Below are positions 5,493-61,550 of a stretch of 64,000 nt of DNA, piece after piece (within the stretch, counting starts at the first letter, position 1; each line of letters opens with the position of its first letter). The stretch comes from Candidatus Uhrbacteria bacterium (GTDB lineage: Bacteria; Patescibacteriota; Patescibacteriia; GWA2-47-26), in assembly GCA_016187515.1 (NCBI GenBank), contig JACPJN010000007.1:140336-204335 (forward strand), given 5' to 3'. Under the pieces are notes generated by a model. That model saw nothing but the letters and a program-made list of their open reading frames with translations. It was not told the origin of the DNA and made no database searches. The translations under genes and the position numbers were made by a program.

Positions 5493-6245
5493 CTATCGGA
5501 AGAACTTCAACACAATGAGTTTCCAGAGCGTTTCCAGTCCTCTTAAAAATCCCTGGCCTTTGGAAAGCGAATATTTATCGTACTTAACCGTAATCGGCAC
5601 TTCCGCCATTTTGAGTTTTAAGCGGGCAATCTCGCGGATAATTTCGGAGGAAACCTCCATGGTGGAGGTGCGCAGGCGCAACTTCTCGGCGGCTGCTCCG
5701 GAAAAGGCCCGAAAACCGGACTGACTATCAGTTACCCATATTCCGAACAGCAGCCAGGTAAAAAAGTTGCCACACCAATTCCCTATCTTCCGTGTTATTG
5801 GTATCCACCGTGCTGTCCTGTTGTCATGCTGTCCTGTTGTCATAAATCTTGAACCGATCACCACCTCCGCTTGCCCCTCCAGGATTGGCTGTATCACCCG
5901 CGCTATCTCGGCGGGATCATGCTGAAGATCGGCATCCAGAGTAACAATTATTGAGTTATTAGTTATTGAGTTATTGGTTATTAGTTGAATTGCTCCGTCA
6001 ATGCCGGTAGAAAGCGCCGCGCCCAGTCCGCGATTAATCGGGTGACGCAGCACGATCGCGCCGGCGGCGCGCGCAACTTCCGCAGTGCGATCAGTGGAGC
6101 CATCGTCAACTACAATAGTTTTAACCCCCTCTTCATCTCCCCCTTGAAAAGGGGGAGAAAGAAAGGGCTGCATTTTACATTTCCCCACCACCTCACCCAC
6201 CGTGCGTTCTTCGTTATAAGCAGGGATTACGACTACGACTTTCAT
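5493..6245 (-). CDS. GT2 family glycosyltransferase (polyprenol-phosphate sugar transferase, DPM1/GtrB-like)
   Basis: VVVIPAYNEE, VVDDGSTD and LDADLQHDP motifs. Contains an in-frame palindromic insert (MQPFLSPPFQGGDEEG) and two in-frame tandem duplications. Confidence 0.8.
   Translation of the reverse strand: MKVVVVIPAYNEERTVGEVVGKCKMQPFLSPPFQGGDEEGVKTIVVDDGSTDRTAEVARAAGAIVLRHPINRGLGAALSTGIDGAIQLITNNSITNNSIIVTLDADLQHDPAEIARVIQPILEGQAEVVIGSRFMTTGQHDNRTARWIPITRKIGNWCGNFFTWLLFGIWVTDSQSGFRAFSGAAAEKLRLRTSTMEVSSEIIREIARLKLKMAEVPITVKYDKYSLSKGQGFLRGLETLWKLIVLKFFR
6136..6158. repeat. CTCCCC-GGGGAG palindromic element copy a (TCTCCCCCTT GAAA AGGGGGAGA), in-frame inside the GT2 CDS
   Basis: Perfect hairpin. 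Encodes a P/G/E-rich loop absent from the other GT2s in the window. Confidence 0.6.
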
Positions 6246-6264
6246 AGTCCATTAGTGTAACACA

Positions 6265-6292
6265 AGGGGCCGGGTTTTCAAACCCGACCCCT
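6265..6292 (-). terminator. strong hairpin (13-bp stem, 1 mismatch) downstream of the FN3 surface-protein gene; possible terminator
   Basis: AGGGGCCGGGTTT tc AAACCCGACCCCT, followed by a direct repeat TCATGCTTCCTA x2 at 6296-6323. Confidence 0.3.
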
Positions 6293-6320
6293 AATTCATG
6301 CTTCCTAATTTTCATGCTTC

Positions 6321-7595
6321 CTACTGAAGCGCGTAGCCCCAGGCGCGTACGGTTGCCCAATCAATTGGTGACTTCGGAATGCGCCCAAAGACCGCTTTGA
6401 ATTTGGTAATACCGACTCGTTCCTTGACAAGATCCCGTTTGAATCGAATCCGATAAAGCATCGTATTCCAGGCCAGATCTTCTTTAGCAACCTTGAAGTC
6501 CGGCGCGGATTTACCAGTAAGCACTTTCCAGTATTTATCCCGCGCCACTCCGGCTTGCGCCACCTCTTTAGTCAGATTGCGCACCGTCGGCTTTTGTCCG
6601 TTCGAAATCTGCTCCGCAGCCAAGAGGAACTTACCGGCATCAGCGGCCACGGTTGCACCCAAAGTTTCGAGCATATCGCGTACCACCGCCAACCGCTCGC
6701 CAGAACCCAGCGCTTTAACCGCGGAGTTGATTGTTCCATAAGTGACGAAGTTGCTAGCCACTGCGCTGACTTCTGCGCCGAGCGTAACTTTGAATTCGCC
6801 GGCGCTGGATCCTACTTTCGCCGTATTCTGGGTTTCGGCCGCGGTATTGCGGACCACTCCAACGGCTTGCGCAAGAGCAGTCGCGTCTTTAACTATATTG
6901 ACTGAAACAGTGGGTGTAACAATCGGGGCCACCGGTGTTACTCCGGTTGTAGCGGCTGGCGCCGCCACGGTTGGCGCCGCAGTTGGGAAGGTCGGACCGG
7001 TTGCTCCGCCGCCGCCACCACCAGATGCTACTGCGGCTGTTCCACCACCGGAAGAGGTGGTAGTAAATGAGCCAGTCAACGCCGCGCTATCGTTCAGGTT
7101 GTTATCACGAGCGCAAACTGCCACATTATAGGTGGTTCCAGCAGTCAAGCTGCTCAAACTCACTGAGGTAGAAGTTGAGGTAGTAGAGCTTCCGCCGGAA
7201 CATCCGGATTGCGCGCTAGTGCTGTAATGGATCAGATAAGTGGAAATACTGCCGCTGCCAGTGGCAATCGCAGTCCCCAAAGTTGTGGTAGTTGGCGCGG
7301 TCCAGGAAACCGTAACCGAGGTCTGCTGCATACTGCTTGTGGATAAACTCGTAGGCGCTCGCGGCGGGGCATCAGAAGATGTCCTTGCGGCATTATAGCC
7401 ATAGCTTCCGCTGTAGTATCCATAATTTCCTGCGGCTTGGTTCAAGGCCTGCACGCTTTGGTTTACAAACGCGGATGAAAGCACAAAAAGGGTAAATATA
7501 GTAATACCCAGTCCACTTTGCCAGCTCTTCCTCTTTTTCGAATCACTCATCACGTTTTTAAAAATTTTCTCGACAAAATGACCAAAATCTCGCAT
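6321..7595 (-). CDS. secreted/cell-surface protein with N-terminal signal/TM segment, fibronectin type III-like domain and a G/T/A/P-rich linker
   Basis: Hydrophobic N-terminus GLGITIFTLFVLSSAFV. FN3-like pattern SVTVSWTAP...YLIHYS...TTYNVAVCARD. Low-complexity GGGGGGATGPTFPTAAPT linker. Confidence 0.5.
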   Translation of the reverse strand: MRDFGHFVEKIFKNVMSDSKKRKSWQSGLGITIFTLFVLSSAFVNQSVQALNQAAGNYGYYSGSYGYNAARTSSDAPPRAPTSLSTSSMQQTSVTVSWTAPTTTTLGTAIATGSGSISTYLIHYSTSAQSGCSGGSSTTSTSTSVSLSSLTAGTTYNVAVCARDNNLNDSAALTGSFTTTSSGGGTAAVASGGGGGGATGPTFPTAAPTVAAPAATTGVTPVAPIVTPTVSVNIVKDATALAQAVGVVRNTAAETQNTAKVGSSAGEFKVTLGAEVSAVASNFVTYGTINSAVKALGSGERLAVVRDMLETLGATVAADAGKFLLAAEQISNGQKPTVRNLTKEVAQAGVARDKYWKVLTGKSAPDFKVAKEDLAWNTMLYRIRFKRDLVKERVGITKFKAVFGRIPKSPIDWATVRAWGYALQ

Positions 7596-7768
7596 ATATA
7601 TGGGTATTTACGATATTACTTTTAATTAAAGAGAGAATTATCCACACCTTTCGGTGTTTTACATGGTCTATTATAGCACTTTGTATAAAGAACAGAAACC
7701 CTACTTATCCACAACAAACTACCCTAAACTATGGGCCGCAGTCCACCCGCTTGTTCATTAAGACGTAA

Positions 7769-7797: not shown

Positions 7798-7823
7798 ACC
7801 CTACACGCTTACACGCGTAATAT

Positions 7824-16184: not shown

Positions 16185-17441
16185 TCAATGTGGGCGATTT
16201 GTGATTAACTTCGCGAGGATATCCAGGCAGGATGACCGGCTAAAATGCTTCGCCGCGTAGGTTTGGCCGCTTTTGCCATATTCTTTCAACTTTAATCGTT
16301 CAGTATACATCTGACGAATCATTTTTTCCGCCCGCTCGGGGTCATCTGAAACAATGGAGTAACCGCACCGGGCTTCCCGGATAATCCGATGACCCTCGCT
16401 TACTGCCTGCAAAAACGCCGCGACCGGCAAACCGGCCGCCATATAACCCAAGAGTTTGCCCGGAACCACCGCAGTCGTATTTTCCGGAGCCAAACACATT
16501 AGTCCAACATCCGCCTCGGCCAGGAGCGCCGGATATTGCCGCGGCGGCACAAACGCTCCAAAAGTAACATTTCCCAAACCGTATTTATTAGCCAGTTGCT
16601 TTAGCCGCTCTTTTTCAGTGCCCTCTCCCACCAATAAAAAATGCGCCTCCTTAATGTCCGCCATACGCCGCGCCACTTCAATTACCAGCTCTAATCCTTG
16701 GGTTGGTCCAAAAATTCCGGCAAACAAAAAAATGAACTTGCCTTCCAGTCCATACTGTCTGCGAAATGACTCATGCTCTCCCTCTCCCCCGGTGGGAGAG
16801 GGTGGGGGTGAGGGGCAAGCAAATCCCGCGACATCTATCCAATTATATACGGTGGTAATCTTCTCCGGCGGCACGGCTTTTTTTTGAATAAGGAATTCTC
16901 GACCACCGCTCGTATGGGTGGTCAGCGCATCGGCCGCACGATACGCGCGGCGTTCCAGATACTCGTAAAACTTAATCAGCGCTTGGTGCTTCATTATGCC
17001 CGCATCGATCGCATTTTGCGGAAAAATATCCTGCACGTTTAAAAGATAGCGCGCGCCATATTTCTTTTTTACCCAAGCGCCCACTTGCGCCAAAGGAAAA
17101 TGCGGTATATAGACAACTACACCATCAATCGTCCCTGCCACGAACTTTTTTATGGCGCGTCGGTATACAAAAGGGAGCGTAAGCTCGCTTAATCCGCGCA
17201 ACACATAATTGGATGTCCGCTGTCCAAATGTTTTGATTCTTACCACCGTAACCGCTCCTTCTTTGACAACTGTGGGCCAGGATTTCCCTTTTTCATCATC
17301 AGGCAGGTTATCCTCCGGCTGGGGAGTCATAACCGTTACCGTATGTCCGCGCGCCACTAACCCTTCCGCCAACTCGCGCATCATCGTCGAAATTGAGCGG
17401 ATCTCCGGAGGATAAAAGCTAGTAAGCAGAAGAATATTCAT
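16185..17441 (-). CDS. GT4 family glycosyltransferase (GT-B, retaining)
   Basis: Glycos_transf_1 C-terminal pattern (GEG..., EGxxxxxxEAMAAGLPV). Carries an in-frame palindromic insert (CPSPPPSPTGGEGEHES). Confidence 0.8.
   Translation of the reverse strand: MNILLLTSFYPPEIRSISTMMRELAEGLVARGHTVTVMTPQPEDNLPDDEKGKSWPTVVKEGAVTVVRIKTFGQRTSNYVLRGLSELTLPFVYRRAIKKFVAGTIDGVVVYIPHFPLAQVGAWVKKKYGARYLLNVQDIFPQNAIDAGIMKHQALIKFYEYLERRAYRAADALTTHTSGGREFLIQKKAVPPEKITTVYNWIDVAGFACPSPPPSPTGGEGEHESFRRQYGLEGKFIFLFAGIFGPTQGLELVIEVARRMADIKEAHFLLVGEGTEKERLKQLANKYGLGNVTFGAFVPPRQYPALLAEADVGLMCLAPENTTAVVPGKLLGYMAAGLPVAAFLQAVSEGHRIIREARCGYSIVSDDPERAEKMIRQMYTERLKLKEYGKSGQTYAAKHFSRSSCLDILAKLITNRPH
16776..16816. repeat. 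CTCCCC-GGGGAG palindromic element copy b, in-frame inside the GT4 CDS
   Basis: CCTCTCCC CCGGTG GGAGAGG plus GTGGGGGTGAGGGG. Confidence 0.55.
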
Positions 17442-17454
17442 ATCAATCCAATCT

Positions 17455-17486
17455 CCTCCCCTTAAAGTAAGGGGAGCTAAGAGGGG
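17455..17486. repeat. CTCCCC-GGGGAG palindromic element copy c (CTCCCCTTA AAG TAAGGGGAG), intergenic
   Basis: Perfect 9-bp arms. Confidence 0.6.
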
Positions 17487-17564
17487 TTATGAGTGTAGTG
17501 ATCATAACAAAAATCGACTCACCCGGCAAGAACCCGCCTTTAGCAGCGCCGCTCATACCTCGGG

Positions 17565-17619: not shown

Positions 17620-18813
17620 CTATAGAATCTCCCCTGCGATCCGCTCCCGCACCACCGCAAGCGGAACACGGCGCAACGGAAGAAATATGAGATAAGAGAA
17701 GACGATGACCGCGAGAGACACCGAGTAGACCGCCTGTCCTTCAAAAAACACTGAAACAACAAGCGCCGCGGTAAACGCAATGCTTTGCACCATCCAAACC
17801 AGCGCCGAGACGGATTCGACATTTTGTTCGTTGGAGATATCGCCTACGAGCGCAAAGGTAATCGTGCGAGAAATTCCAAAGTTGAACGCGAGCAGAAGGA
17901 TCGCCGCCACCAGTACTGCCGGAACACGCGCGCCAAGCATAAGGCCAACCCCGGCAATGCTTAACACATACATCAGCGTGATCATGCCGCGCCGTCCGCG
18001 CAAATCAGAAAGTTTTCCAAATAGGTAAGCAAAAAGCATGGGCATGATATAAAAACTTCCCACAAGCAATCCAATCGCCCATACTCCAATGGTGCGCTTT
18101 ATCTCAAGAGGGACAATGCCGAGCATGAGCCCCTGAATGAAATTAAAAACAAACCAAATCGCCGACATCCGCAGCGCGGTACGACTGACCATCGCACGTC
18201 TCATCTCACGCCATTTATTGCTTTTCACCTCCACACGGATGTCATCGACGCGCCCAAGAAATGGCAATGCGACAAGCGGAACAAGCGCGAACAAGGCGAA
18301 CCCTCCGCGATAGCCCAGAATCGGAAGCAAGAGTCCCAGGAGCAATACTCCGCTTGCGGCGCCAACCGAAAAAAGCGTGGAAAAGAAACCGGCATTTGCG
18401 CCATACACCGCGGGGTCGCTGGCGCGAATAAGGTACGAATTCTGCGCGGTCCACAGCACCGCGCCAAACGCGCCAAGCAGCGCGGAAGCCGGATAAATCA
18501 GTGCCGGGTTTGCTGTCAGCAATGAAAGACAATAAAGCGTGTAAAAGAATACTGATCCAATCATGCTTCGCTTGGCGCCAATCTTGGAGATCACCACCGC
18601 GCCGATTGGATTTACCAGCGTGAAAACCGAGTACAGAATGATAAGCGAGACAAAACCAACTTGCTTGATCCCCGCCCCATCAAAAAACGTAGTCACGTAC
18701 TGCTGAACTCCGTCAAATCCGAAAAAGATAAGCAGGAATGCTGCGCTCAAGAGCTTGGCGTTTCGATTTATGGAATGTGCCATACTATTCCTCCGCCCCC
18801 ACCCTATCACCAC
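17620..18813 (-). CDS. MFS transporter
   Basis: About 12 TM helices with MFS-like charged loops. Confidence 0.65.
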   Translation of the reverse strand: MVIGWGRRNSMAHSINRNAKLLSAAFLLIFFGFDGVQQYVTTFFDGAGIKQVGFVSLIILYSVFTLVNPIGAVVISKIGAKRSMIGSVFFYTLYCLSLLTANPALIYPASALLGAFGAVLWTAQNSYLIRASDPAVYGANAGFFSTLFSVGAASGVLLLGLLLPILGYRGGFALFALVPLVALPFLGRVDDIRVEVKSNKWREMRRAMVSRTALRMSAIWFVFNFIQGLMLGIVPLEIKRTIGVWAIGLLVGSFYIMPMLFAYLFGKLSDLRGRRGMITLMYVLSIAGVGLMLGARVPAVLVAAILLLAFNFGISRTITFALVGDISNEQNVESVSALVWMVQSIAFTAALVVSVFFEGQAVYSVSLAVIVFSYLIFLPLRRVPLAVVRERIAGEIL

Positions 18814-18854: not shown

Positions 18855-19280
18855 TTACTTGTGTGTGGCAATAAACTTTGTAATCGCTTCGATATATTGC
18901 GGGTACTCGCGCACCGCATCACTTATCGCGTCATATAATACATCGTAGCGGATCCCGTCATATTCATGAATAAGGCGATTGCGAAGGCCGGCGGACTTGG
19001 CGACTTCACCGGCAAATTTCGCCGTAAGTACTCCAAACTCTGCGAGTTTCAAAAACGAATCTTCATAAGTATCTGGGGGAGCTTTTCCTGATTCCACTAA
19101 AAGATGACTATTGATATCAATCGCGCGATTCACAATATGTTCAAGCAAATGCTCGGTAACATGCCGTGTGCGTGAGTCCTCTAAAAATACTTCCCAATGC
19201 GGTGGTTTTTCCCGCCGAAGTTCTTCAAGATCCGCCTTGATTAATTTTAGTTTTTGCTCCACAAATTCTCGATCAATCAT
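18855..19280 (-). CDS. hepT: HepT-family (DUF86) RNase toxin of a type VII toxin-antitoxin pair
   Basis: Rx4HxY motif (RNRLIHEYDG). About 140 aa. 4-bp overlap with the upstream MNT gene. Confidence 0.8.
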   Translation of the reverse strand: MIDREFVEQKLKLIKADLEELRREKPPHWEVFLEDSRTRHVTEHLLEHIVNRAIDINSHLLVESGKAPPDTYEDSFLKLAEFGVLTAKFAGEVAKSAGLRNRLIHEYDGIRYDVLYDAISDAVREYPQYIEAITKFIATHK

Positions 19281-19684
19281 ACCGCACGGAGATATTTACG
19301 AGTAAGCGCGCGGAGATGCGCAGTATCTAAATATTCAGAAACTGCTCGCGTTCGAAATTGTGCCGCGGTTCTAGGATCGCCGTATAAAAGTTTCGAGGCG
19401 CGCACCAGCTGCATTTTAAGAAGCGGACTCGTATGCGTCAAAACCGTCAAGTCAACATTTTTTTTAAATACACGAGTTAAATCAGAAATAAGATCCAATT
19501 CGTCTTTATTGGAAAGCGACTTGGTTGGGAGCACGGCAATATCAAAATCACTATCCGGCCTGGCATGACCTTTTACGTAAGACCCAAATGCAAAGATAAG
19601 CGCAAGATGATATTGCGCCGCAATGCGATCTATCTCTTTAGTCGGTATATTCTTTAACTTCTCCATATGGTGTAATTCTACCAT
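19277..19684 (-). CDS. mntA: MntA-family minimal nucleotidyltransferase antitoxin
   Basis: GSx10DxD motif (GSYVKGHARPDSDFDIAV). About 135 aa. Confidence 0.8.
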   Translation of the reverse strand: MVELHHMEKLKNIPTKEIDRIAAQYHLALIFAFGSYVKGHARPDSDFDIAVLPTKSLSNKDELDLISDLTRVFKKNVDLTVLTHTSPLLKMQLVRASKLLYGDPRTAAQFRTRAVSEYLDTAHLRALTRKYLRAV

Positions 19685-20539: not shown

Positions 20540-21547
20540 TTACTTCAGCCACCCCAGCGCCTCCAGCACGGCGCGGCCGATATGGGTTACGGCCAGCGCG
20601 CGGTTTTCGCCGTCAAGCACAAAGTGGTGACCAAAGTCATTCAGCCCGCCCTCGAAATTGAGGGCGAACACGACCGGCGAACGATCCGGACGCGGCGCGA
20701 TTGCGACCATGCGGCGGCGCATGGGCGTGCCGTTATGCGTCTCCAGGTCGCGGAACTTCCAACCCGTACCTTCAAGCTGCAACTTGGCTACGCTCGTGAT
20801 GGCAAAATCGCCAACCGGGCCGGCGGTTACAACACCGGCCTGGCCATTGAGAGTGTCGCGACCAACTGTAAGCAGCTCAAGTCCCACATCCCGGCTGAAA
20901 AAACTCGTAGACGGACTGACGTCTCCCTCTGGACGAGCAATGAAAGGATCCCACGCCTGCGTCTGCACGACGTCAAACTTTTCCTGATGATCTGTCAGCT
21001 CTCTGGGGAGCACGAAACGCGCCCGACCATCTTCCTTATACACCCCCATCTCCACCATCTCGCCGATCTGGTCGACCAAGAGATTTACGGTCTCGGCCAT
21101 TCCGCCGGACGGCTCGGCATCGTTTTGCCGCCCAGGCGCGCCGGTATTGCGCACGTGCATGATCGCGACCCACTCCGGAAACGCCGGCTCGGGCATGTAC
21201 CCGAAGTACTTTTCCAAAAGCCGCGACATGCGCCGCTCGTCCAGATGAGCGAGCGCCACCCACCGCACGAGCATCGCAGTTGCGCCGCCAAAGTGCGCCA
21301 CACCTTCAAACTTGCCCGGCTTGCGCTCCTTGTGGACGCGCTCAAGCGTATCCACGTCGAGTCCCGCTTTTCTTGCCGCATCCGGATCCGGCGGCTTGGG
21401 TGTGGTCATAACCTGCAGATCGCGCGTTTGCGCCACGATCCGACCGTCTTGCGTCACTTCTCCGAAAACGATTCCTTTGGTCCAGGGCATTGGTTTTCTC
21501 CTTGTGTTGTGGGGGGTTTCGTGGTTGTCAATGAAATGAACAAGCAT
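20540..21547 (-). CDS. hypothetical protein (GC-rich island); start may be at MPWTKG (21490)
   Basis: Balanced amino-acid composition on the minus strand. The overlapping plus-strand ORF 20582..21691 is Arg-rich and looks like an antisense artefact. Confidence 0.4.
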   Translation of the reverse strand: MLVHFIDNHETPHNTRRKPMPWTKGIVFGEVTQDGRIVAQTRDLQVMTTPKPPDPDAARKAGLDVDTLERVHKERKPGKFEGVAHFGGATAMLVRWVALAHLDERRMSRLLEKYFGYMPEPAFPEWVAIMHVRNTGAPGRQNDAEPSGGMAETVNLLVDQIGEMVEMGVYKEDGRARFVLPRELTDHQEKFDVVQTQAWDPFIARPEGDVSPSTSFFSRDVGLELLTVGRDTLNGQAGVVTAGPVGDFAITSVAKLQLEGTGWKFRDLETHNGTPMRRRMVAIAPRPDRSPVVFALNFEGGLNDFGHHFVLDGENRALAVTHIGRAVLEALGWLK

Positions 21548-21590
21548 CCCTTTTGGGATGCTTCTACCTTACATAAAACGCTACACCGTG

Positions 21591-22430
21591 TCAAGTCCAG
21601 GAAAGCATTGCCCGCACTGGCAGATGATCGGAAACGTCTACCTCCGGCGCATCAATGGACTCCACGCGAAAATGCGGCGAGGTGTAGATAAAGTCCACCA
21701 ATCGCCCGGCGCCGAGAACCTCCGCGGCGCGGTGCGTGCGAAGATTAAGGGTATTGTTGATGCCCGAACCATAGCAGGTATTACTCGCCGCCTTATCAAG
21801 AATCCGTATCACTTCCGAACCCGGCTCCATATTAAAATCACCGCCCAGTATAAATGGCTCATCGCCAAGTCCCCGCAGATACTCCGCGAGCAGGCGTGCC
21901 TGACGAATTTTTTCCGGCGTATCAACTGGAGCTTTGGTCCAAGCGCCATGAGTGGAAAGTATATGGAAAATACCCTCTCCCACCCCCTCTTCTCCCACCA
22001 CCCCCCGCCCCTCCTCTGGCAGGAGGGGAGACCCCCCTCGGGCAGGGGGAGAAAAACGCACGATTACGTCCAGCGCATTGCGCGGCATTTCCGGCCCGTC
22101 TTTTTCCCAAAGCAAATCCGAATAATCACGATATGCTTTTAACTGAACCGTATTACTGGCTAGGATTTTACCGCGAGCAAGCACCGCGTTACTTTCATAC
22201 GAAGATGAGTCGCCAATCAAACGAAACATCGGGGCTACAACCCCTTCAAGACCCAAGGCACTCCTAAGGTGCTGAAAAATATCCATACGCTGATCAGCCC
22301 AAAAGTTAACCCGCCCGCCAGAAACCTCCTGCATGGTAATGATATCCGGCTGCTCGCCGCGCAAAAACGAAATCAACTTATCCAAGAATTTACCGTGATA
22401 GATATTGATCTGAATGACTTTCAACCGCAT
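21591..22430 (-). CDS. endonuclease/exonuclease/phosphatase (EEP) family protein
   Basis: GDFNM and SDHLPV EEP motifs. Carries an in-frame G/P/E-rich insert from a palindromic element. Confidence 0.7.
   Translation of the reverse strand: MRLKVIQINIYHGKFLDKLISFLRGEQPDIITMQEVSGGRVNFWADQRMDIFQHLRSALGLEGVVAPMFRLIGDSSSYESNAVLARGKILASNTVQLKAYRDYSDLLWEKDGPEMPRNALDVIVRFSPPARGGSPLLPEEGRGVVGEEGVGEGIFHILSTHGAWTKAPVDTPEKIRQARLLAEYLRGLGDEPFILGGDFNMEPGSEVIRILDKAASNTCYGSGINNTLNLRTHRAAEVLGAGRLVDFIYTSPHFRVESIDAPEVDVSDHLPVRAMLSWT
21974..22054. repeat. composite CTCCCC-GGGGAG palindromic element copy d, in-frame inside the EEP CDS
   Basis: CCCCTCCT CTGGC AGGAGGGG at 22008-22028 and CCCCCCTC GGGCA GGGGGAG at 22032-22051. 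Confidence 0.6.
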
Positions 22431-24099: not shown

Positions 24100-25251
24100 T
24101 TAAAATCCAAAAAATCCTAAAATCTTTTTCGCTGTCCGTTTCATCTTGGAAGGCCAAAATACTCTTCGACTGCCATCCGTATAAACACTCTTCTCTAACA
24201 CCATGGTGCGGTAGTATTCCAATGTTTGTTTTTCTTTAACGTATTCTTTAAAAAATGGGGAGTGATCAGCAATAATAAGATCAAGCTCTTTCGGACTTTC
24301 CGTAAATGCGGCGTGATTTTCAAAATAGTGCGCGTCCAGGGTGCGATAGTAAATACCGTTTTTTTTGATTACGGCCCAAATATTGATGGTTTGATTCACC
24401 CGCGGCGCAAAATCAGTATGCTCCTCCGCGATAAGATAGGGCCGCTCCTTTTCGGAAAACAAAGAAATTCCGTCAATATTCTCCGCCACCGGCGCCCCGA
24501 TAATTTCGCACAGCGTCGGATAAATATCCATGACGGATGAAAACCGTTCGCTGACGACCAGGCCGCGGTCAGCTTTCTTTCTGTGCAATAAAAAAGTATT
24601 GGTGCGAGCTTTATTTAAAAGCAGATAAGCCGGTTCTTTCTTAAACTCGCGGCGCAGCTTAAAGCCATGATCGGAGAAAATCAGAAGGTGATCAAAGTCG
24701 TCAACATTCAGATCGCGGCGAAGTATCCGTAGGGAATTCGCGACTTTTTGATGTCCTTTTTTGACAAACCGCGGATAATAATCAAAATCATCCATCGCAT
24801 AGTGAAAATCTGCTAAAGAAATATAGACCAAACTTTTATCTTTAATGTCCAATCCTTGTAAAAATTTCTCCAGATTCAGATCTGTATTGTGTACTCCTCT
24901 GGAGTTAAATCCCGGGGGGAATACCCCATTCCTTTTTTCATTCGGATTATTGAAAAAAGATAAATTAAAGCCATGTTCCAACAAAATTTCCAGGATATTT
25001 TTTCCGTCATTTTTCAAAAAAAATCCCGGATATTTTATCCGTTTATCACAGCCATTTTTGTAAGGATACTTTCCTGACCAAACACACGCCAAACTCCTGG
25101 CCGTGTCCGGGGCCGGCGTAAAACAATTTCGATATAATGTCCCGCCGATCTTTTCAAATTCTTCATCCAGCGACCCCTTCTCCCGAGTGCGGTTCACGAC
25201 ATGCAGCATCTCCGGCCGCAGCATGTCTATAAAAATAATGAGAATCTTCAT
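24100..25251 (-). CDS. alkaline-phosphatase superfamily protein (sulfatase/phospho-headgroup transferase-like)
   Basis: IFIDMLRPEM N-terminal metal-site region and FSDHGF motif. AT-rich gene. Confidence 0.5.
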   Translation of the reverse strand: MKILIIFIDMLRPEMLHVVNRTREKGSLDEEFEKIGGTLYRNCFTPAPDTARSLACVWSGKYPYKNGCDKRIKYPGFFLKNDGKNILEILLEHGFNLSFFNNPNEKRNGVFPPGFNSRGVHNTDLNLEKFLQGLDIKDKSLVYISLADFHYAMDDFDYYPRFVKKGHQKVANSLRILRRDLNVDDFDHLLIFSDHGFKLRREFKKEPAYLLLNKARTNTFLLHRKKADRGLVVSERFSSVMDIYPTLCEIIGAPVAENIDGISLFSEKERPYLIAEEHTDFAPRVNQTINIWAVIKKNGIYYRTLDAHYFENHAAFTESPKELDLIIADHSPFFKEYVKEKQTLEYYRTMVLEKSVYTDGSRRVFWPSKMKRTAKKILGFFGF

Positions 25252-25940
25252 ACCCGCATTACAACATTAAAGTTAAACGGGCTATTGCCGTAACCCTGTA
25301 TCTCCTGTCTGGATATTTCCACCTCCGCGCCATAGTGCGCTCCCAATTCTTCAAACCATTCCTTACTGTAGTATAAACGGGGCAAATCCTTGTACTTCTG
25401 ATCATACTCGTTTGGGCTAAGCTTTCCCCGCCGTACATTTTCCGCCTCCATCTCCAGCGCTTTGTTTGGCACATCCAAAACCGCTATTGATTTTTTTGCT
25501 TTTTTTATCATCCGCGCAATAACTGCTTCGGCGTAGGCAAGTGTGGAAAAATACTGAAACACGCTGTTGGAAAAGACCACGTCATACAAGGGTTCCTCTT
25601 CCAGAGCCACTGCCTCGCGACAGATAAAGTCACTTCCCATGGTCTTACACGCCTCTTCAATAAGTACAGGTGAATAATCTAATCCCCCAACCCGGTGACC
25701 TGACTGCCAAAACGGATACAAAAACGCTCCGCTCCCGCATCCTACTTCATACAACGAATCGCCTGCTTTTATGCCAAGGTTTTCGGCAATGCGTTTCGCG
25801 TACATTTCCCAATCCGCGACTTCTACCGCACCGGCTCCGGTATCAAAACCATCCAGGCGAATCAAACGCTCGAGCGTATTTATCGCCGCGGGACTGGCGG
25901 ACCGTGAGTCCCAAATTTTTTTCCACCGATTACTGTCCAT
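25248..25940 (-). CDS. class I SAM-dependent methyltransferase
   Basis: YEVGCGSGAF motif I. Confidence 0.7.
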   Translation of the reverse strand: MDSNRWKKIWDSRSASPAAINTLERLIRLDGFDTGAGAVEVADWEMYAKRIAENLGIKAGDSLYEVGCGSGAFLYPFWQSGHRVGGLDYSPVLIEEACKTMGSDFICREAVALEEEPLYDVVFSNSVFQYFSTLAYAEAVIARMIKKAKKSIAVLDVPNKALEMEAENVRRGKLSPNEYDQKYKDLPRLYYSKEWFEELGAHYGAEVEISRQEIQGYGNSPFNFNVVMRV

Positions 25941-25943
25941 AAG

Positions 25944-26690
25944 TTATTTTGTAAGACGCGGATAAATAACCTCTCGCGCGCGCTTTAAATCCTCTTCACG
26001 ATCAATCTCAATCCACGGAAAAGCTGTAGGGAGCGTATAGACCGGCAAGTCCTCGGTCGTAGCGCGCATAACACACTCTTCATAATGATAAAGGCGTTCC
26101 CCTCGCGCGTAATCGTCTTCGGCGGTTTTAAAAAGGTGTTCTAAAAAATTCGCGGAAAAACGGGAAATGCCCACCATCTCGCCGCAGGCCTGACGCTTTT
26201 GATCATCGGATAATTGCTTTCCCAGCGCGCGAAGTTGATTCCGTTTATCAGCGCACACATACACTTCATCTCCTGAACCGGAAAGCGGTGAGACCAGCAT
26301 TACATTCCGGTGCGGCGAGCGAAGCGCGATATCAATAAGCTGTTGATCATAGAGAAGATCGGATTCCAGAAGAAGCACCGCGCTATTTTTAACCGCCTCT
26401 TTTGTCTTTGAAAACGAATACATACTGCCCGTCACCGCGTATTCTGCGTTTAAAATATAGCGCAACGGCATTCCTTGAAAATTATCCCCAAAACGAGTTT
26501 GGATCATCTCATGAAGGTATCCTGCCGCGATAACAACTTCGGACATACCGGCTTGCTTGAGCGCTAGAAAAGATCGTTCGAGCAAAGTTTTACCGTCAAC
26601 TTCCAAAAGACCCTTGGGCAGTTTTTGAGTCCGCGGTCGCAAACGCAGTCCCATCCCGGCCGCGAGAATAACCGCTTTTAAATTGCTCAT
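25944..26690 (-). CDS. nucleotidyltransferase (LicC/AEP cytidylyltransferase-like)
   Basis: AVILAAGMGLRLRP (GxGxRL) sugar/phospho-headgroup nucleotidyltransferase motif. Confidence 0.65.
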   Translation of the reverse strand: MSNLKAVILAAGMGLRLRPRTQKLPKGLLEVDGKTLLERSFLALKQAGMSEVVIAAGYLHEMIQTRFGDNFQGMPLRYILNAEYAVTGSMYSFSKTKEAVKNSAVLLLESDLLYDQQLIDIALRSPHRNVMLVSPLSGSGDEVYVCADKRNQLRALGKQLSDDQKRQACGEMVGISRFSANFLEHLFKTAEDDYARGERLYHYEECVMRATTEDLPVYTLPTAFPWIEIDREEDLKRAREVIYPRLTK

Positions 26691-27769
26691 ACAACCTCTT
26701 GCATGGCTACAAACAGCCGGTCAATATCAGTTTTCTCAATCTCTCCCATATTGGCAATCCGAAACATCACTTTGCCCGCCTCTCCTTGCCCGGCATAGAT
26801 TATAAATCCGGCGGCCTTTAAATGATCATGCAAAGTTTGGTAGGACATACCGTGGGGCAGACGAAACGCAGTAAGCGTGGATGCCAGCATTCCTTCTTCC
26901 AGATACATTTTTATCCCCAGCTCCTGCGCGCGGGTTCGGATATATTGGGCGAGCTGACGGTATTTTTCATGGCGCGCCCTCCAGCCGCCTTGTTCCTGAA
27001 ATTCCCGTAACGCTTCATCCAGCGCATAGAGCACTTGAACCGTCTGAGTAAATGGCGTTCCGCCGCGTTCCTGCTCGCGATAATATCCTCGCAGATCAAG
27101 GTATACTGAACGCGGCTGAAAATCAATCTGCTCCAGTAATTCTCGCCGAACGACTACAAAAGATATTCCCGGGATGCCATGCAGACATTTATTGGCTGTC
27201 GCGCAAACCGCGCCGATATTCCATTCGTCAAAATTCAGCTCTTCTCCGCCAAAGGAGCTCACTCCGTCGATCAATAACACTTTCCCATAAGTCCGCGCAA
27301 GCTCGGAGATCATGCCAAGATCATTTAGCCGTCCGGTGGTGGTTTCATGATGGATAGCCGCAATATGGCTAATTGCCGGATCGCTTTTTAAGGCCTCCTC
27401 AATTCTATACCGATCCAGCTCTTGTCCCCACTCATGCTCAACCATCGTAAAAGCAATTCCATGGGCCTTGGCTATTGCCGCGATACGCTCACCATAGACC
27501 CCATTTTTAAGCATCAGCAGTTTTCCGTTTGGCGGAACAATACTTGTCACCATCGCCTCCACCGCGGCAGTGCCCGATCCGGTTAAAATAACGCTCGTGT
27601 AACGCGCTTTGGGTAATCCATACACCGCAAGCAGGCCTTGTCGCACCGCTTCTTGCAAAACCGAAAATTCATTCTCGCGATGGCACATATCGGACTGCAT
27701 AAGCGCGCGGCGCACACGCTCGCTAACATTGACCGGCCCGGGATTAAGCAGAATCATTTTTTTGTCCAT
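26687..27769 (-). CDS. 2-aminoethylphosphonate:pyruvate aminotransferase (class V aminotransferase, PhnW/AepZ-like)
   Basis: LLNPGPVNVSERV N-terminus typical of class V/PhnW. Operon context with pepM and ppd. Confidence 0.7.
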   Translation of the reverse strand: MDKKMILLNPGPVNVSERVRRALMQSDMCHRENEFSVLQEAVRQGLLAVYGLPKARYTSVILTGSGTAAVEAMVTSIVPPNGKLLMLKNGVYGERIAAIAKAHGIAFTMVEHEWGQELDRYRIEEALKSDPAISHIAAIHHETTTGRLNDLGMISELARTYGKVLLIDGVSSFGGEELNFDEWNIGAVCATANKCLHGIPGISFVVVRRELLEQIDFQPRSVYLDLRGYYREQERGGTPFTQTVQVLYALDEALREFQEQGGWRARHEKYRQLAQYIRTRAQELGIKMYLEEGMLASTLTAFRLPHGMSYQTLHDHLKAAGFIIYAGQGEAGKVMFRIANMGEIEKTDIDRLFVAMQEVV

Positions 27770-27770
27770 A

Positions 27771-28901
27771 TCACTTACCGTTTAAAAATTGCATAAAGGC
27801 CGCTTTATTTTGCTGCGGCGTAGTGGTTGGTCGCCCGAGATTTGCGCGCGCGCCCTTGCGTACGCGCACCTCTAAAAGACATGGCCCTTTTTGCAAACGT
27901 AATTCGTTAAGTGCGCCGACCAGTTGCGCGGCGGTCTCTACACACCAAGCTTTTTTATAAGCGCACGCCAAGGCAACTTTGGCTATATCAACTTTAAAAC
28001 CCGCGGTGGGCTGACCCCCTACTGAATCGTGGGCGCCGTTGTTAATCACAATGTGCTTCAAATTCTCCCGCGCTTGCGCGCCAATTACTGCCAGCGCCCC
28101 CATATGCATAATCAACGCTCCATCACCGTCAACACAATATACCTGGCGATCCGGTTTAGCAAGCGCGATCGCAAGCGCGATCGAGGAAGAATGGCCCATC
28201 GATCCAACCGTTAAAAAATCGCGATGATGACCTTGTCCTTTGGCTTCTCGATATTCGTAAAGCTCACGGGACGCCATTCCGGTGGTTGAGACTATTACAT
28301 CGTTTTCTCCCAAGGAATCTACAATGCGCTTAAGCGCATCTTCGCGAGTCATCTCCAAATGAGTTTCAACCGGCGCGCCTATCGGATACGCTTCAAAAAC
28401 GCCTTTTCGTACGATAAGCGCGTATGGCTGACTCTCGGATTGCATTATTTTAAAAGCACGCGCCAGCGCGGCATTGGCACCCTCCGGATCCGATGGAAGA
28501 ATCTCAAATGGAATACCAAGCGTTTCAAAAAGTGTAGTGGTAACCTCCCCTTGCTTAAGATGCTGGGGCTCATCATGGACGCCCGGCTCACCGCGCCAAC
28601 CAATCAAAAGTAGCATGGGGATCCCGTATACTTTTGGATCGGTAAGCGAAGTTAAGGGGTTCACAATATTGCCTTGACCGGCATTTTGGAGATAAACCAG
28701 GGCCGGATTGCCGGTTGCCAAATAATGCCCGGCGGCAAGCCCAACGGCGTTACCCTCATTGGCCGCGATAATATGGTTCTCTTGCGAAACCTCCGCGCTC
28801 ACGCACGCGCAGAACTCTTTCAGCAGGGAATCCGGCACGCCGGTAAAAAAATTTATACCCTGCGCCCGTAACCTGACGACAAAATCTTTCGGGGATATCA
28901 T
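27771..28901 (-). CDS. ppd: phosphonopyruvate decarboxylase (ThDP-dependent)
   Basis: Ppd-like N-terminus with [10 protein letters not shown], plus the ThDP-binding motif [14 protein letters not shown]. Confidence 0.78.
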
Positions 28902-30550: not shown

Positions 30551-30558
30551 AAAAAATT

Positions 30559-31743: not shown

Positions 31744-31750
31744 ATTTGTG

Positions 31751-31784
31751 TACGAATTACGAATCTTGTACGAATACTACGAAT
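31751..31784. promoter_or_regulatory. four TACGAAT direct repeats (spacing 7, 11, 9) immediately upstream of wecB
   Basis: gTACGAATTACGAATCttgTACGAATacTACGAATcc. Shares the 14-mer RCGAATTRCGAATC with 4923-4936. Confidence 0.4.
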
Positions 31785-31789
31785 CCGCA

Positions 31790-32665: not shown

Positions 32666-32667
32666 AA

Positions 32668-47923: not shown

Positions 47924-48550
47924 TTACACATGCTCGAAGTTCCATCGCTCATAAAATCGCACCGCCGAAGGCCTCCGGCCATCAATCACAAGCAGAAGTC
48001 GTCGACATCCTTGCTGTCTCGCATAATCAAGAATTCTTACAAGTACGGAGGAATATACAAGAGTTCCGCGCGCACTAGGGTGAGTAAATACAGGACCAAC
48101 ATAGGCATCTCCTTTCTTTGCTTTGCGTCGCTGAGACCATACCTTCATAAAGGGTGATGCGGTTGCATCATGGAAAAACCATGCATAGTGAATAATTTTA
48201 CCTTCTCTTTCTGCAATAAAACATTGCGCACGAGGATCTCCCAATCTTAAAAAGTAATGCTTATCATACTCGTGCTCCTTTATAAGCACAGGAAATAAAT
48301 CACGGGTTATTTGCTTATAATCCGCGGGGGTTGCAATATGAATTTTTAGCAAGTCTGAAATTGGAAATTGAATCAGAGGTCGATCGAGGGAATACGCAAA
48401 GCATACCAAATGTCGCTCCTCAAAAAGATGATAATGCGCGTATTTTAATATTTTCCGCCCGAAATCCATAGCATTACACTTCCATGCTCTGATCAATGAT
48501 GAACATTGTTTCATAGCAATCACCAAGAGAAATGATGTGTCATCGTACAA
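47924..48550 (-). CDS. GNAT family N-acetyltransferase
   Basis: Q/RxxGxG/A-like motif GPVFTHPSARGTL. About 200 aa. Confidence 0.5.
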   Translation of the reverse strand: MYDDTSFLLVIAMKQCSSLIRAWKCNAMDFGRKILKYAHYHLFEERHLVCFAYSLDRPLIQFPISDLLKIHIATPADYKQITRDLFPVLIKEHEYDKHYFLRLGDPRAQCFIAEREGKIIHYAWFFHDATASPFMKVWSQRRKAKKGDAYVGPVFTHPSARGTLVYSSVLVRILDYARQQGCRRLLLVIDGRRPSAVRFYERWNFEHV

Positions 48551-50367
48551 GGGAGATTCGCCTTACAATAAACTTTCGTCGTCAGAGAAGGTATCATAAC
48601 ACCGTAGGCGGGGCATGTCCAATCCGAAATCGTCTCAGGTGCCCCAGTGGAATGCCGGCTATATATTCCTTCAATGCCTGGAGCAAAATGAAAAAAAGTT
48701 TCAACCGCATGAGCGCGCGCGCCATATAATTCGTCTTCTACCTCGAACGCAGGACGATTGCACTGAACTTTGAAGCGGCGTGTGTGCTTAATCATATCGC
48801 CTTGGATCCGAAGAAAACCAGTATGGCTGATTGAAAACACGAATTGATCGCCGATCTTTTGCCACTGCGCGAACACATTACGCTTCTGATAAAACGCCGG
48901 AAACTTCTGCGCACGGTCATAAAGAAATGGACCCAAACTATCTATAGTAAGTGATGTATGTGCCGAAGCTCCGCCGCTATAGATATACAAAGGGTCGCTT
49001 GCTTTATAGGTTGGCCTTCCTGGGTCAATAACTACCGGCACCCCGGAAGCAAAAAATACAAAAGAGCACACATCTGCATGACCATGCGATGCGCGGTGAA
49101 TCATGCATGCTTGCGGGATGTGCCAAAAAAGCGTATGAACACCATGGTTCAAACGAAACCAGCCGCTTTCCGGAAACGCTTGCCACCCTCCCCTAGCCCC
49201 TCCCACAAGTGGAGGGGGATTTCCATTTACTACCTCTCCCTTTATGGGAGAGGGTTGGGGTGAGGGTGATCCTATCAAAGGCATCAGATAGTGGATCAAC
49301 CACTCCGGCGTACAATCCGGCGATACATCCCCGATAAGCGGTATCTGCCAGTGTCCATCTGTATCCTCCACCAGAAAAAACCAACACCGCTCTGCAAGTT
49401 TTTTAACCCATGGCGCAAGACACATCTCCATTTCCTGATGCCCTGTTTCCTGCGCAAGTTCATACATCTCCAATATCCAGCGGGTAAAAAGTAAATGATA
49501 ATGGCTTGACTCTTCGCGCAAAAATCCATCCTCGGTTACAAGCCATGGCAATGCGTCTTTAACAATAGCAAATGCCAAATCTGATAACTCTTTTGCCTTA
49601 AGCATTTGTCCGGCAAAAAATAGCGCGCGTGCGTTATTAACCACATGATTGCCGGTTCCGCGCGTTCCGTGGTATTCCAAATGCCGTGCCACATGGTATG
49701 CCATCTCTAACAGTGCCGCACTAATATCTTTCGGGGTCTCCGATCTCTGTTGCGCAAAAAACAACAACGCATTTACCATTCGCTCCCCTGTGGTATACGT
49801 TGTCCCGGAAATCCCTTCCGGAACCGGCCTCATTGCCGAAAGCCAAGAACGCATCAACGTAACACCTTGCTCATTGTCCATCTCATCGTAGATTAGCCAA
49901 TGCCAGCGGTGGAGCGACATGGTCTGCTCCGGATCGTCAAATTGTGTGTGCCAGTTCGGTTCACCATCGTACTCGAGAAATCCGGTGGCGAGTTTAAGGC
50001 GACCGCACGCGATACCGTCATTCTGAGGAATCGGAGATGACGAAGAATCCCGTGGGTACGTGGACGGGATCCTTCGTTGTCGCTCAGGATGACGAATTAT
50101 AGAATTAAACGCCCTCCGCACCTCTTTCGGATAATTCCACACCGGCGGAGTATAACGATATTGCAATGAAAACAAACCACGACGCACGAAAAAAAGTAAA
50201 GTCCGCGCGCAAAAAATCGGATTCACACAACGCCATAGTAAATTGCGGACTTCATTGGTCATACAGCTTTTGTAACGGCATGCCGGTCTGCAAAGAAACG
50301 GTAAGTCGTTGATACACATCGGCAACCTGTGCATAATCAAACTCTCACAACGCATTCTTAAGTTCAT
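48520..50367 (-). CDS. heparinase II/III-like domain protein (start probably internal)
   Basis: SHGHADVCSF motif of the Hepar_II_III family. In-frame insert SPSPQPSPIKGEVVNGNPPPLVGGARGG from a palindromic element. Confidence 0.5.
   Translation of the reverse strand: MNLRMRCESLIMHRLPMCINDLPFLCRPACRYKSCMTNEVRNLLWRCVNPIFCARTLLFFVRRGLFSLQYRYTPPVWNYPKEVRRAFNSIIRHPERQRRIPSTYPRDSSSSPIPQNDGIACGRLKLATGFLEYDGEPNWHTQFDDPEQTMSLHRWHWLIYDEMDNEQGVTLMRSWLSAMRPVPEGISGTTYTTGERMVNALLFFAQQRSETPKDISAALLEMAYHVARHLEYHGTRGTGNHVVNNARALFFAGQMLKAKELSDLAFAIVKDALPWLVTEDGFLREESSHYHLLFTRWILEMYELAQETGHQEMEMCLAPWVKKLAERCWFFLVEDTDGHWQIPLIGDVSPDCTPEWLIHYLMPLIGSPSPQPSPIKGEVVNGNPPPLVGGARGGWQAFPESGWFRLNHGVHTLFWHIPQACMIHRASHGHADVCSFVFFASGVPVVIDPGRPTYKASDPLYIYSGGASAHTSLTIDSLGPFLYDRAQKFPAFYQKRNVFAQWQKIGDQFVFSISHTGFLRIQGDMIKHTRRFKVQCNRPAFEVEDELYGARAHAVETFFHFAPGIEGIYSRHSTGAPETISDWTCPAYGVMIPSLTTKVYCKANLPCTMTHHFSW
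49186..49270. repeat. composite CTCCCC-GGGGAG palindromic element copy i, in-frame inside the heparinase-like CDS
   Basis: CCCCTCCCAC AAGT GGAGGGGG at 49197-49218 and CTCTCCCTTTATGGGAGAGGG at 49234-49254. Confidence 0.6.
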
Positions 50368-57485: not shown

Positions 57486-57509
57486 TTGCTAATTTGCGTC
57501 CATCCTATG

Positions 57510-60967: not shown

Positions 60968-61025
60968 TGATACCTTCTAAAATTAGAGAATAAGTATCTC
61001 AACAGATAGTACAACAAGATCGGGG

Positions 61026-61054
61026 TTGACGCAAGAATGCCCTGCTGGTACGAT
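61026..61054 (+). promoter_or_regulatory. candidate promoter (TTGACG, 17 nt, TACGAT) for gtrA
   Basis: -35 at 61026-61031 and -10 at 61049-61054, 12 nt before the ATG at 61066. Confidence 0.3.
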
Positions 61055-61065
61055 AGAGCTATTCT

Positions 61066-61542
61066 ATGGCTAATGCACGGCATCATCCTTATCTGGAGTA
61101 CCTATTGATCAAACTTCCTTGGTTTGAAAAATTCCCCACCCACTTTATTTTTTTCGCATTTTTCGGAGGGATTGCGACTGCAGTGGATTGGAGCGTATTC
61201 TATGTAACTCATCTGCGGCTTGGCTGGCACTATCTTCAAAGCGTGACCTTGACCTTCATTTTGGGCACACTGATAAGTTTTTCCGGCAATAAGTATCTTA
61301 ATTTCCAAGATTCCTCAAAAAAAATAATCCGTCAATATGTAATATTTGCCTCTTTGGCGGCAGTAGGTCTACTGATCACTTACGGACTGCTTACAATATT
61401 TATTGAGTATCTGCACTTGCACGCGATGGTCGCTCGCGCCATTTCAACCTTCATCGTGCTTTTCTACAACTACTTTTCGCAAAAACACATTACTTTCAAT
61501 AAACGATTCACTCATAACCCCTCCCCCCTCCCCTTACCTTAA
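61066..61542 (+). CDS. gtrA: GtrA-family membrane protein (polyprenol-linked sugar translocase-like)
   Basis: 4 TM helices with GtrA-like pattern. C-terminal PSPLPLP tail and stop come from a palindromic element. Confidence 0.6.
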   Translation: MANARHHPYLEYLLIKLPWFEKFPTHFIFFAFFGGIATAVDWSVFYVTHLRLGWHYLQSVTLTFILGTLISFSGNKYLNFQDSSKKIIRQYVIFASLAAVGLLITYGLLTIFIEYLHLHAMVARAISTFIVLFYNYFSQKHITFNKRFTHNPSPLPLP

Positions 61543-61550
61543 GGGGAGGA
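61517..61550. repeat. CTCCCC-GGGGAG palindromic element copy j (CCTCCCCTTA CCT TAAGGGGAGG), supplies the last codons and stop of gtrA
   Basis: Perfect 10-bp arms. Confidence 0.6.

Follow-up and report, generated by a model that had tools for sequence, protein, structure and literature searches.

The window analysed here, a 64-kb stretch of a metagenome-assembled genome (MAG) of Candidatus Uhrbacteria, a member of the Candidate Phyla Radiation (CPR), lying on a contig of 318 kb, carries 13 short GC-rich units which, as read from their sequence, are class II purine-motif intrastrand triplex motifs (TMs) of the kind known from Escherichia coli as BoxC, potential intrastrand triplex (PIT) elements or TM_ECO. 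Eight of these units, together with remnants of nested copies, lie in frame inside six genes, two supply the stop codons of genes and three are intergenic. The best explanation, to which a probability of roughly 0.8 is attached, is that BoxC-type TMs were gained at new sites and that tolerated copies were kept in frame within genes. The initial annotation of this DNA had described a dispersed family of short GC-rich hairpins, several of them in frame in ordinary genes and behaving like Rickettsia palindromic elements (RPEs). That observation is confirmed and sharpened, with host open reading frames (ORFs) that are open and Pfam matches on both sides of the units. The accompanying interpretation is half right: the behaviour is RPE-like, and the elements belong to a class already known.

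Hairpins with an all-pyrimidine 5' arm of at least 6 nt, containing at least 4 C and pairing perfectly with a purine arm, were found 15 times in the window, whereas 50 dinucleotide shuffles gave 0.56 on average and never more than 3; this agrees with the earlier count of at least ten palindromic copies, and a hairpin was present at every site that had been listed. The pattern CCCCTY-N2-8-RAGGGG occurred five times where 0.08 were expected. As the bare hexamer CTCCCC was only weakly enriched (34 versus 22.8 expected), the signal lies in the hairpin arrangement and not in composition. The units had been taken for simple palindromes, a description that has to be abandoned, as a third, mirror-repeat block is present in every unit. 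Read 5' to 3', a unit of about 33 nt (32-35 nt) starts with a pyrimidine arm, which a loop of 3-7 nt separates from the complementary purine arm; after a further 3 nt or so comes a block of G, A and T that mirrors the purine arm, with G opposite G and A or T opposite A; viewed on the opposite strand, the pyrimidine arm is preceded by its own mirror image. One 33-nt unit reads CCTCCCCTTTTGAAGGGGAGGTTAGGAGGGGTC; further examples are 31788-31820 (CTCCCCCTC CCG GAGGGGGAG TTA GAGGGGG) and 35422-35454 on the minus strand (CCTCCCC TTTTGAA GGGGAGG TTA GGAGGGG). A strict scan for the three blocks, employing 8 triplets with at most one mismatch, returned 13 units in the window; 20 block shuffles that preserve composition yielded none. 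In 12 of the 14 family hairpins of the window the third block is perfect over 7-10 triplets, and one more matches in 8 of 9 triplets. Three blocks on one strand, stems of 6-15 nt and no more than one mismatched triplet place the units in the class II purine motif, and their first loop of 3-7 nt is in keeping with the published dimensions (first loop 1-6 nt, 3-6 nt in TM_ECO, second loop about 3 nt). The Watson-Crick part alone, computed as DNA, has a stability of -6.7 to -12.1 kcal/mol. On the class II strand TTT or TCT stands before 12 of the 13 units, three units share the tail GTTATGAGTG or GTTATGAAAA, and each unit is free of stop codons in three to six of the six frames.

Segment 36460-36502 of the window, 92% identical over 39 nt to the E. 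coli element, is matched in 5312 of 5426 complete E. coli genomes, where the median number of places per genome is 13; among the matches listed no annotated feature lies under the E. coli sequence, the holC-pepA spacer being one example. The earlier view of an unrecognised sequence family consequently gives way to membership of the BoxC/PIT/TM class. The TM_ECO consensus CCCTCNCCC-N3-6-GGGNGAGGG-N3-GGGNGAGGG, assigned to the class II purine motifs by Holder et al. (2015, PMC4666352), fits the copies at 16780, 36465 and 49232, and the other ten units are other G/C-rich TM variants and not TM_ECO. The same paper, in which intrastrand triplex motifs were surveyed in 5246 genomes, traces the elements from BoxC in E. 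coli in the 1990s (Bachellier et al.) to their rediscovery as PIT elements by Hoyne, Maher et al. (2000, 2002), and reports that the isolated E. coli strand folds into a triplex in vitro as assessed by circular dichroism (CD) and nuclear magnetic resonance (NMR), that PIT elements have neither promoter nor terminator activity and that purine-motif triplexes are not formed in RNA (PMC4666352). All 23 copies of E. coli K-12 are intergenic, five occurring as inverted doublets, and the E. coli copies have no linked mobility genes and no reported phage link, with local genome variability raised; cyanobacteria hold many G/C-rich triplex motifs, which other groups have as well, TM_ECO is from proteobacteria, and intragenic copies are not discussed (PMC4666352).

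Hairpins of the form CCTCCCCTT-N3-5-AAGGGGAGG were found at no fewer than 120 loci (at least that number) in 185,579 species genomes. The loci listed belong to Nostoc and other cyanobacteria, Nitrospira, alpha-, gamma- and deltaproteobacteria, Bacteroidota, Omnitrophica, Saccharibacteria and other Patescibacteria, and most of the listed matches are flanked by GTTAGGGTGGGGTA or GGAGGGGTT. Numerous further hairpin variants are present at these loci. The third block co-varies with the arm, AAGGAGGGG being followed by GGGGAGGTA, AGGGGGAAGG by GGATGGGGGT and TAAGAGGGGG by GGGGGTGTTAT, and a perfect mirror block accompanies 170 of 296 unique hairpins, compared with a mean of 33 (maximum 50) when the flanks were permuted and with 51 when the block was read as a direct repeat. 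An arm G faces G in 1389 of 1418 cases, an arm A faces A in 241, T in 363, G in 21 and C in 16 (A or T in 604 of 641), and the spacer measures 3 nt in 173 of 226 units. These correspondences follow the code of an antiparallel purine-motif triple helix. A pyrimidine-motif triplex on the C-rich strand was considered as the general form and rejected, because in most copies from other phyla the third block of the G strand has T opposite A; the C strand then carries A at that position, in breach of the pyrimidine code. In the viral contigs of IMG/VR the hairpin is present in 59 stretches (L129-L187), with a third block of at least 8 of 9 triplets in 59 of 71 occurrences, and some viral contigs hold five copies in less than 20 kb (e.g. 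L185, 306-12204, and L136, 6557-9909); IMGVR_UViG_3300024999_000584 is one of the multi-copy contigs. Tandem arrays containing hairpin units, with periods of about 37, 275 and 101 nt, were seen in Scytonema (L009, 2488-2695), Nitrospirales (L042, 5211-6248) and a cyanobacterial MAG (L063, 2749-2970), respectively. No Rfam family matches the window or 18 loci from other phyla at gathering thresholds, literature searches on the motif strings gave irrelevant matches only, and those on palindromic or in-frame repeats in CPR bacteria or Patescibacteria, or on in-frame TMs, returned nothing relevant.

The units of the window are given below; the strand is that on which the pyrimidine arm comes first.

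6124-6158, minus strand: TCTCCCCCTT-ttc-AAGGGGGAGA-tga-AGAGGGGGT, found by the strict scan, with 10 of 10 third-strand triplets; in frame in the GT2 gene 5493-6245, residues 30-41 (SPPFQGGDEEGV), in the loop that links the first beta-strand/helix to IVVDDGSTD.
16780-16814, plus strand: BoxC-type, CCCTCTCCC-ccggt-GGGAGAGGG-t-GGGGGTGAGGG, found by the strict scan and aligning with E. coli BoxC; antisense to the GT4 gene 16185-17441, residues 210-221 (PSPPPSPTGGEG), in the linker between two Rossmann domains.
17456-17488, plus strand: CTCCCCTTA-aag-TAAGGGGAG-ctaa-GAGGGGTT; intergenic, between ORFs 16185-17441 and 17620-18813.
21974-22054, minus strand: composite element in the EEP gene 21591-22430, residues 126-153; strict TM at 21996-22028, CCCCTCCT-gccag-AGGAGGGG-cgg-GGGGTGGTG, and a putative outer unit, TCTCCCCCT-gcccg-AGGGGG^AGA-AGAGGGGGT, interrupted by the inner one.
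31788-31820, minus strand: CTCCCCCTC-ccg-GAGGGGGAG-tta-GAGGGGGTG; intergenic, left half of an inverted doublet.
31832-31864, plus strand: CCTCCCCT-gcccg-AGGGGAGG-tta-GGAGGGGTG; right half of that doublet, at the 3' end of the RmlD-like gene.
32666-32697, minus strand: CCCCTCTTA-aga-TAAGAGGGG-tta-GGGGAGTT; intergenic, or 5' leader of the RmlD-like gene.
35338-35400, plus strand: TM at 35360-35392, CCCCCCCT-gcccg-AGGGGGGG-ctc-GGGGGGGTG, complete and enclosed by the loop of a remnant outer hairpin, TCCCCCTCC ... GGGAGGGGG; antisense to the GT4 gene 34757-35989, residues ~197-218.
35422-35454, minus strand: CCTCCCCTT-ttg-AAGGGGAGG-tta-GGAGGGGTC; sense, in the linker of the same GT4 gene, residues 179-190 (SSPFEGEVRRGL).
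36465-36497, minus strand: BoxC-type, CCCTCTCCC-ttt-GGGAGAGGG-tt-GGGGTGAGGG; sense, in the DUF2079 membrane-protein gene 35986-37605, residues 370-381 (SLSLWERVGVRV).
49186-49217, minus strand: CCCCTCC-acttgtg-GGAGGGG-cta-GGGGAGGG; sense, in the heparinase II/III-like gene 48520-50367, residues 384-394.
49232-49266, plus strand: BoxC-type, CCTCTCCC-tttat-GGGAGAGG-gtt-GGGGTGAGGG; antisense, in the heparinase-like gene, residues 368-379, forming a doublet with the 49186 unit.
61516-61549, minus strand: CCTCCCCTTA-agg-TAAGGGGAGG-gg-GGAGGGGTT; lying across the 3' end of the GtrA-like gene 61066-61542.

Beside or near some units (5399-5481, 5948-5986 and 31749-31785) stand short tandem repeats, 7-18 nt in length; TACGAAT-type repeats lie immediately to the left of the 31788 doublet, and a 15-nt repeat is found inside the GT2 gene. 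The GT2 protein contains a tandem TNNSITNNSI.

All host ORFs are open, and in the six genes that contain units the Pfam matches continue in frame to either side of them. The GT2 match (residues 5-188) spans the unit, and three paralogues are shorter by 7-10 residues at this site; the peptide MQPFLSPPFQGGDEEG, formerly placed at the N-terminus of the protein, is internal (residues 25-40), with the gene start upstream at MKVVVVIPAYNEE. In the GT4 protein encoded at 16185 the N-domain ends at residue 204 and the C-domain starts at 224, on either side of the unit. The EEP match extends from residue 7 to 269, and the 24 residues SPPARGGSPLLPEEGRGVVGEEGV occur only in the window protein among 38 homologues, the closest of which is 76% identical and lacks the 72-nt block in its DNA; the insert carries the peptide FSPPARGGSPLLPEEGR. 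An AlphaFold model built with an alignment of homologues (pLDDT 92.6, pTM 0.90) shows residues 127-152 as coil with a pLDDT of about 50, at the turn between strands 117-126 and 153-161, and the insert is accordingly modelled as a disordered beta-hairpin loop. Contigs of four separate sequencing runs, as well as the NCBI MAG, encode an identical EEP protein with the insert. The elements of the second GT4 protein (gene at 34757) occupy residues 178-218 between Pfam domains at 45-175 and 217-386, and its interdomain linker of 41 residues is about twice as long as those of 16 orthologues (19-25 residues), three of which have Pro/Gly-rich TM-like peptides of their own in the linker. In the DUF2079 protein the match (residues 88-494) runs across the unit at 370-381.

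The heparinase-like protein has an N-domain match at residues 130-312, a C-domain match at 396-602 and elements at 366-394. It has 49 residues between conserved anchors compared with 31 in a 69% identical orthologue from a related Uhrbacteria genome (P0002), which is without the window doublet, and the window DNA is 54 nt longer at the doublet site. P0002 in turn carries a 75-nt TM doublet at another site, missing both in the window and in a further orthologue (P0003), plus another pair of units near the N-terminus, and P0003 has units of its own. The 21.7-kb syntenic region around P0002 contains only four such hairpins, all within the heparinase-like gene. The initial annotation had claimed that paralogues in the window lack the segments: absence from homologues holds for the EEP, GT4 34757 and heparinase-like proteins and for the GT2 paralogues, but not for DUF2079, where the segment replaces one of the same length. 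For the three host proteins searched, no homologue of between 76% and 100% identity was found. Encoded peptides differ with frame and orientation and are rich in Pro, Ser and Leu and in Gly, Glu and Arg, and they are probably translated, as the reading frames are intact.

Composite copies, as had been noted, are of two kinds: inverted doublets, three in number (31788-31864, 35360-35454 and 49186-49266), and nested elements (21974-22054 and 35338-35400). The EEP element can be read as an outer unit of 33 nt and an inner one of 39 nt, adding up to 72 nt, exactly the length of the insert, and this nesting, together with that at 35338-35400, suggests that existing hairpins are preferred landing sites. 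Two units supply gene ends. The TTA spacer of the 31832-31864 unit is the TAA stop codon (31853-31855) of the RmlD-like gene on the minus strand, while the 61516-61549 unit encodes the C-terminal PSPLPLP of the GtrA-like protein and its hairpin loop provides the TAA stop (61540-61542). At the other end of the RmlD-like gene the ATG (32665-32663) directly follows the unit tail ...GGGGAGTT; the TTG-started ORF (32716) is spurious, its Pfam RmlD match starting at residue 20. The earlier assignment of three sites as intergenic is borne out for the units at 17456, 31788 and 32666, the last of which (given previously as 32668-32697) adjoins the real ATG of the RmlD-like gene, but not for the 31832-31864 unit, which overlaps the 3' end of that gene.

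Residence in genes was also seen elsewhere. A crude test, for which a unit had to lie in an ORF of at least 200 residues with at least 40 residues on each side, classed 7 of 13 window units as intragenic compared with 16 of 193 units from the other listed loci, and the positives include three of four CPR loci. The atpG gene of a Saccharibacteria genome (L039, 2066-3160) holds two TM doublets and encodes a 364-residue protein with inserts of 36 and 44 residues relative to solved gamma subunits. In the ruvB gene of another Uhrbacteria genome (L092, 3331-4434) a doublet adds 31 residues; their site corresponds exactly to the interval from residue 239 to 242 of P. aeruginosa RuvB and separates the lid domain from the winged-helix domain. 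One unit lies in frame in the queA gene of a Patescibacteria genome (L114, 2-691), and another in a linker of a gammaproteobacterial class II ribonucleotide reductase (L076, 5242-7947).

In the proposed explanation the first two blocks of a single strand would form a Watson-Crick hairpin, on the purine arm of which the third block would fold back antiparallel through reverse-Hoogsteen triplets (G*G:C, A*A:T and T*A:T). New sites would acquire units, by addition or by exchange, as single copies, inverted doublets or nested elements, and in some cases adjacent sequence would be lost. Most landing sites would be coding, because the chosen ORFs cover about 98% of the window. Copies that survive would be those that keep the frame, are free of stop codons and lie in interdomain linkers, beta-hairpin turns or gene ends, where they would either be translated into disordered Pro/Ser/Leu- and Gly/Glu/Arg-rich loops or supply a new stop codon. 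Insertion as an event and triplex folding in vivo are both presumed in this scheme, and spread by a structure-recognising host process acting on single-stranded DNA is a speculative addition to it. A wider proposal, that TMs constitute structure-defined selfish DNA which crosses phyla, possibly via phages, by a host single-stranded DNA mechanism recognising the folded triplex, and which, in CPR bacteria with their gene-dense genomes, has regularly furnished new protein loops, new linkers and new gene ends, core machines such as ATP synthase gamma and RuvB included, is tentative and on balance doubtful.

The window units agree with BoxC/PIT/TM_ECO in the three-block class II purine motif, the loop sizes, the consensus (in three window copies), the occurrence of inverted doublets, the absence of any associated mobility gene among those seen and a copy number that is patchy between relatives. 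They differ in their CPR host, in stems far more varied than the near-identical E. coli set and in their location, since E. coli K-12 copies are without exception intergenic whereas 8 of 13 window units lie in genes and two fall on stop codons. Frequent in-frame residence in CPR genes, core genes included, together with the supply of gene ends, appears to be new. Small dispersed repeats (SDRs) of Nostoc, reportedly described by Elhai and co-workers in 2008, are said to be hairpins of 21-27 nt with nested insertions in heterocystous cyanobacteria; many of the Nostoc loci listed here carry TM doublets. The elements cannot themselves be called a new triplex element, a designation that was rejected as the class is already described in PMC4666352. 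RPEs measure about 100-150 bp, encode a conserved peptide and form Rickettsia-specific families (Ogata et al. 2000, 2002, summarised in PMC10969869). The window units, like RPEs, are palindromic repeats in frame in unrelated enzyme genes at fold-compatible positions, in a small and gene-dense genome, and to that extent the RPE-like behaviour proposed at the outset was correctly recognised. Unlike RPEs, they are 32-35 nt long, possess a third triplex block, encode peptides that vary with frame and orientation and occur in many phyla; in-frame insertion at tolerant sites is shared with RPEs, and sequence membership of an RPE family is not.

Among the rival explanations, repetitive extragenic palindromic (REP) sequences or REPINs moved by a REP-associated tyrosine transposase (RAYT, a Y1 transposase), or miniature inverted-repeat elements moved by an insertion sequence transposase encoded elsewhere in the genome, are unlikely, though the most probable of these. 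Like REPs and REPINs (PMC3116915, PMC3733652), the units are short GC-rich hairpins of high copy number, often in inverted doublets, as is also seen at the Nostoc, Nitrospira and Geobacter loci, and the nested copies suggest that hairpins are targeted. However, REPs are extragenic by definition and are without the mirror third block, and the GTAG/CGTC tag is missing within 8 nt in 12 of the 13 window units, the remaining one having a chance CTAC. Neither a Y1 nor any other transposase, RAYT included, was seen among the 38 Pfam-scanned window proteins or the Pfam labels of L001, an overlapping contig, no mobility genes lie near the E. coli copies (PMC4666352), no target duplication was read, and terminal inverted repeats are not evident in the units, orthologue DNA being too diverged to define the junctions. 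The REP-like label of the initial annotation was accordingly withdrawn, and its suggestion of transposition was weakened by the great diversity of the copies. It is also improbable that the structure concerned is not a triplex but a G-quadruplex formed by the G-rich strand, or an i-motif formed by the C-rich one: BoxC-type units do have four G-tracts and the canonical pattern, G3+N1-7 x4, is matched by 5 of the 13 units, but the other eight fall outside it, such a fold has no need for the mirrored A/T interruptions of the perfect blocks seen in 170 of the 296 hairpins, and the E. coli unit is a triplex by CD and NMR (PMC4666352).

The possibility that the units act at the RNA level, as terminators, attenuators, stabilising hairpins or coding gaps bypassed by the ribosome, was likewise weighed and is given a very low probability. 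Bypassed coding gaps are known from T4 gene 60 and from the 'byp' inserts of Magnusiomyces mitochondria. The stability of the hairpins, as computed above, and the position of some units at gene ends or in leaders (31832, 32666 and 61516) would suit such a role. Against it, five units inside genes are sense and three antisense, which argues that the unit acts as DNA and not as an RNA signal, and every intragenic locus is frame-keeping and stop-free, which would be needless for bypassing; retention of the frame at all six insertion loci, with a chance of about (1/3)^6 if the frame were free, argues for translation rather than ribosomal bypass. The absence of an Rfam match, the lack of promoter or terminator activity in PIT elements and the lack of purine-motif triplexes in RNA (PMC4666352) point the same way. 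If, instead, the Pro/Gly-rich segments had evolved in place as linkers, the DNA symmetry being a by-product of codons, their location in linkers and loops of variable length among homologues and the equal length of the DUF2079 loop in orthologues would be expected, but the intergenic copies at 17456, 31788 and 32666 share the architecture, the units are used in both orientations and several frames to give different peptides, one coding copy is 92% identical to the non-coding E. coli BoxC, and protein selection cannot yield a mirror block obeying the triplex code, leaving this reading exceedingly improbable. Next to no credence is given to an artefact of assembly or gene calling, in the form of a chimeric MAG or of dead genes open by chance. 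The units are indeed stop-poor, with three to six of six frames open, and the TTG-extended ORF at 32716 is such an artefact; on the other side stand the recovery of the identical EEP protein from four runs and the NCBI MAG, the continuation of conserved domains, with no change of frame, to either side of the units of six genes, and an EEP model that is confident outside the insert.

Several observations weigh against the preferred explanation, the gain of BoxC-type TMs with in-frame retention. Neither the Pfam scan of 38 window proteins nor the Pfam labels precomputed for the 21 genes of contig L001 showed a transposase, a RAYT or an integrase, about 10 of the 61 chosen ORFs being unscanned. 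Some ten different stem sequences among 13 copies are odd for a recently transposing family, and the evidence comes from only 64 kb of the genome. The loop of DUF2079 orthologues is of about the same length as that of the window protein, so that the unit there replaced sequence with no net insertion, and at site C of the heparinase-like gene a TM is likewise present with no net gain in length, indicating insertion plus deletion, or replacement. Target-site duplications and clean empty sites are not readable, the nearest relatives being 64-76% identical. Intact frames are the one basis for translation of the segments, and no triplex was detected in vivo in E. coli by dimethyl sulphate (DMS) footprinting (PMC4666352).

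The window, for which the source samples are runs SRR12113418-431, is mostly occupied by a large glycan-biosynthesis cluster, besides ComEC, nucleoside diphosphate kinase and a HEPN/MNT pair. The kinase ORF (447-1064, 205 residues) has a split Pfam match, with an extended N-terminus and an internal extra segment, but no TM was found in it. The nucleotidyltransferase/HEPN pair, of the MNT-HepT type, lies within the glycan cluster (18855-19684). A set of phosphoenolpyruvate (PEP) mutase, phosphonopyruvate decarboxylase-like and aminotransferase genes (~25000-30600) suggests a phosphonate-decorated glycan. ORFs 20540-21547 (minus strand) and 20582-21691 (plus strand) overlap almost completely; the former has no Pfam match and is favoured by the gene call of the assembly (316 residues, no domain).

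In the roughly 30 years for which BoxC/PIT/TM elements have been known, neither a function nor a way of spreading has been established for them, and the E. coli copies had been described as strictly intergenic. The in-frame CPR copies represent dated, site-specific gain events that can be compared between lineages, and they show, as a natural experiment, where in a protein 11-30 additional residues can be accommodated; they are also a possible source of some of the unexplained extra segments of CPR proteins. In annotation, ORFs are spuriously lengthened by the units, from which starts and stops of genes can also arise. A near-identical 33-nt unit is present in E. coli, cyanobacteria, Nitrospira, CPR bacteria and viral contigs, and the covariation of its three blocks shows that a structural constraint unites the family, so that what recognises or generates the triplex-forming strand becomes directly testable.

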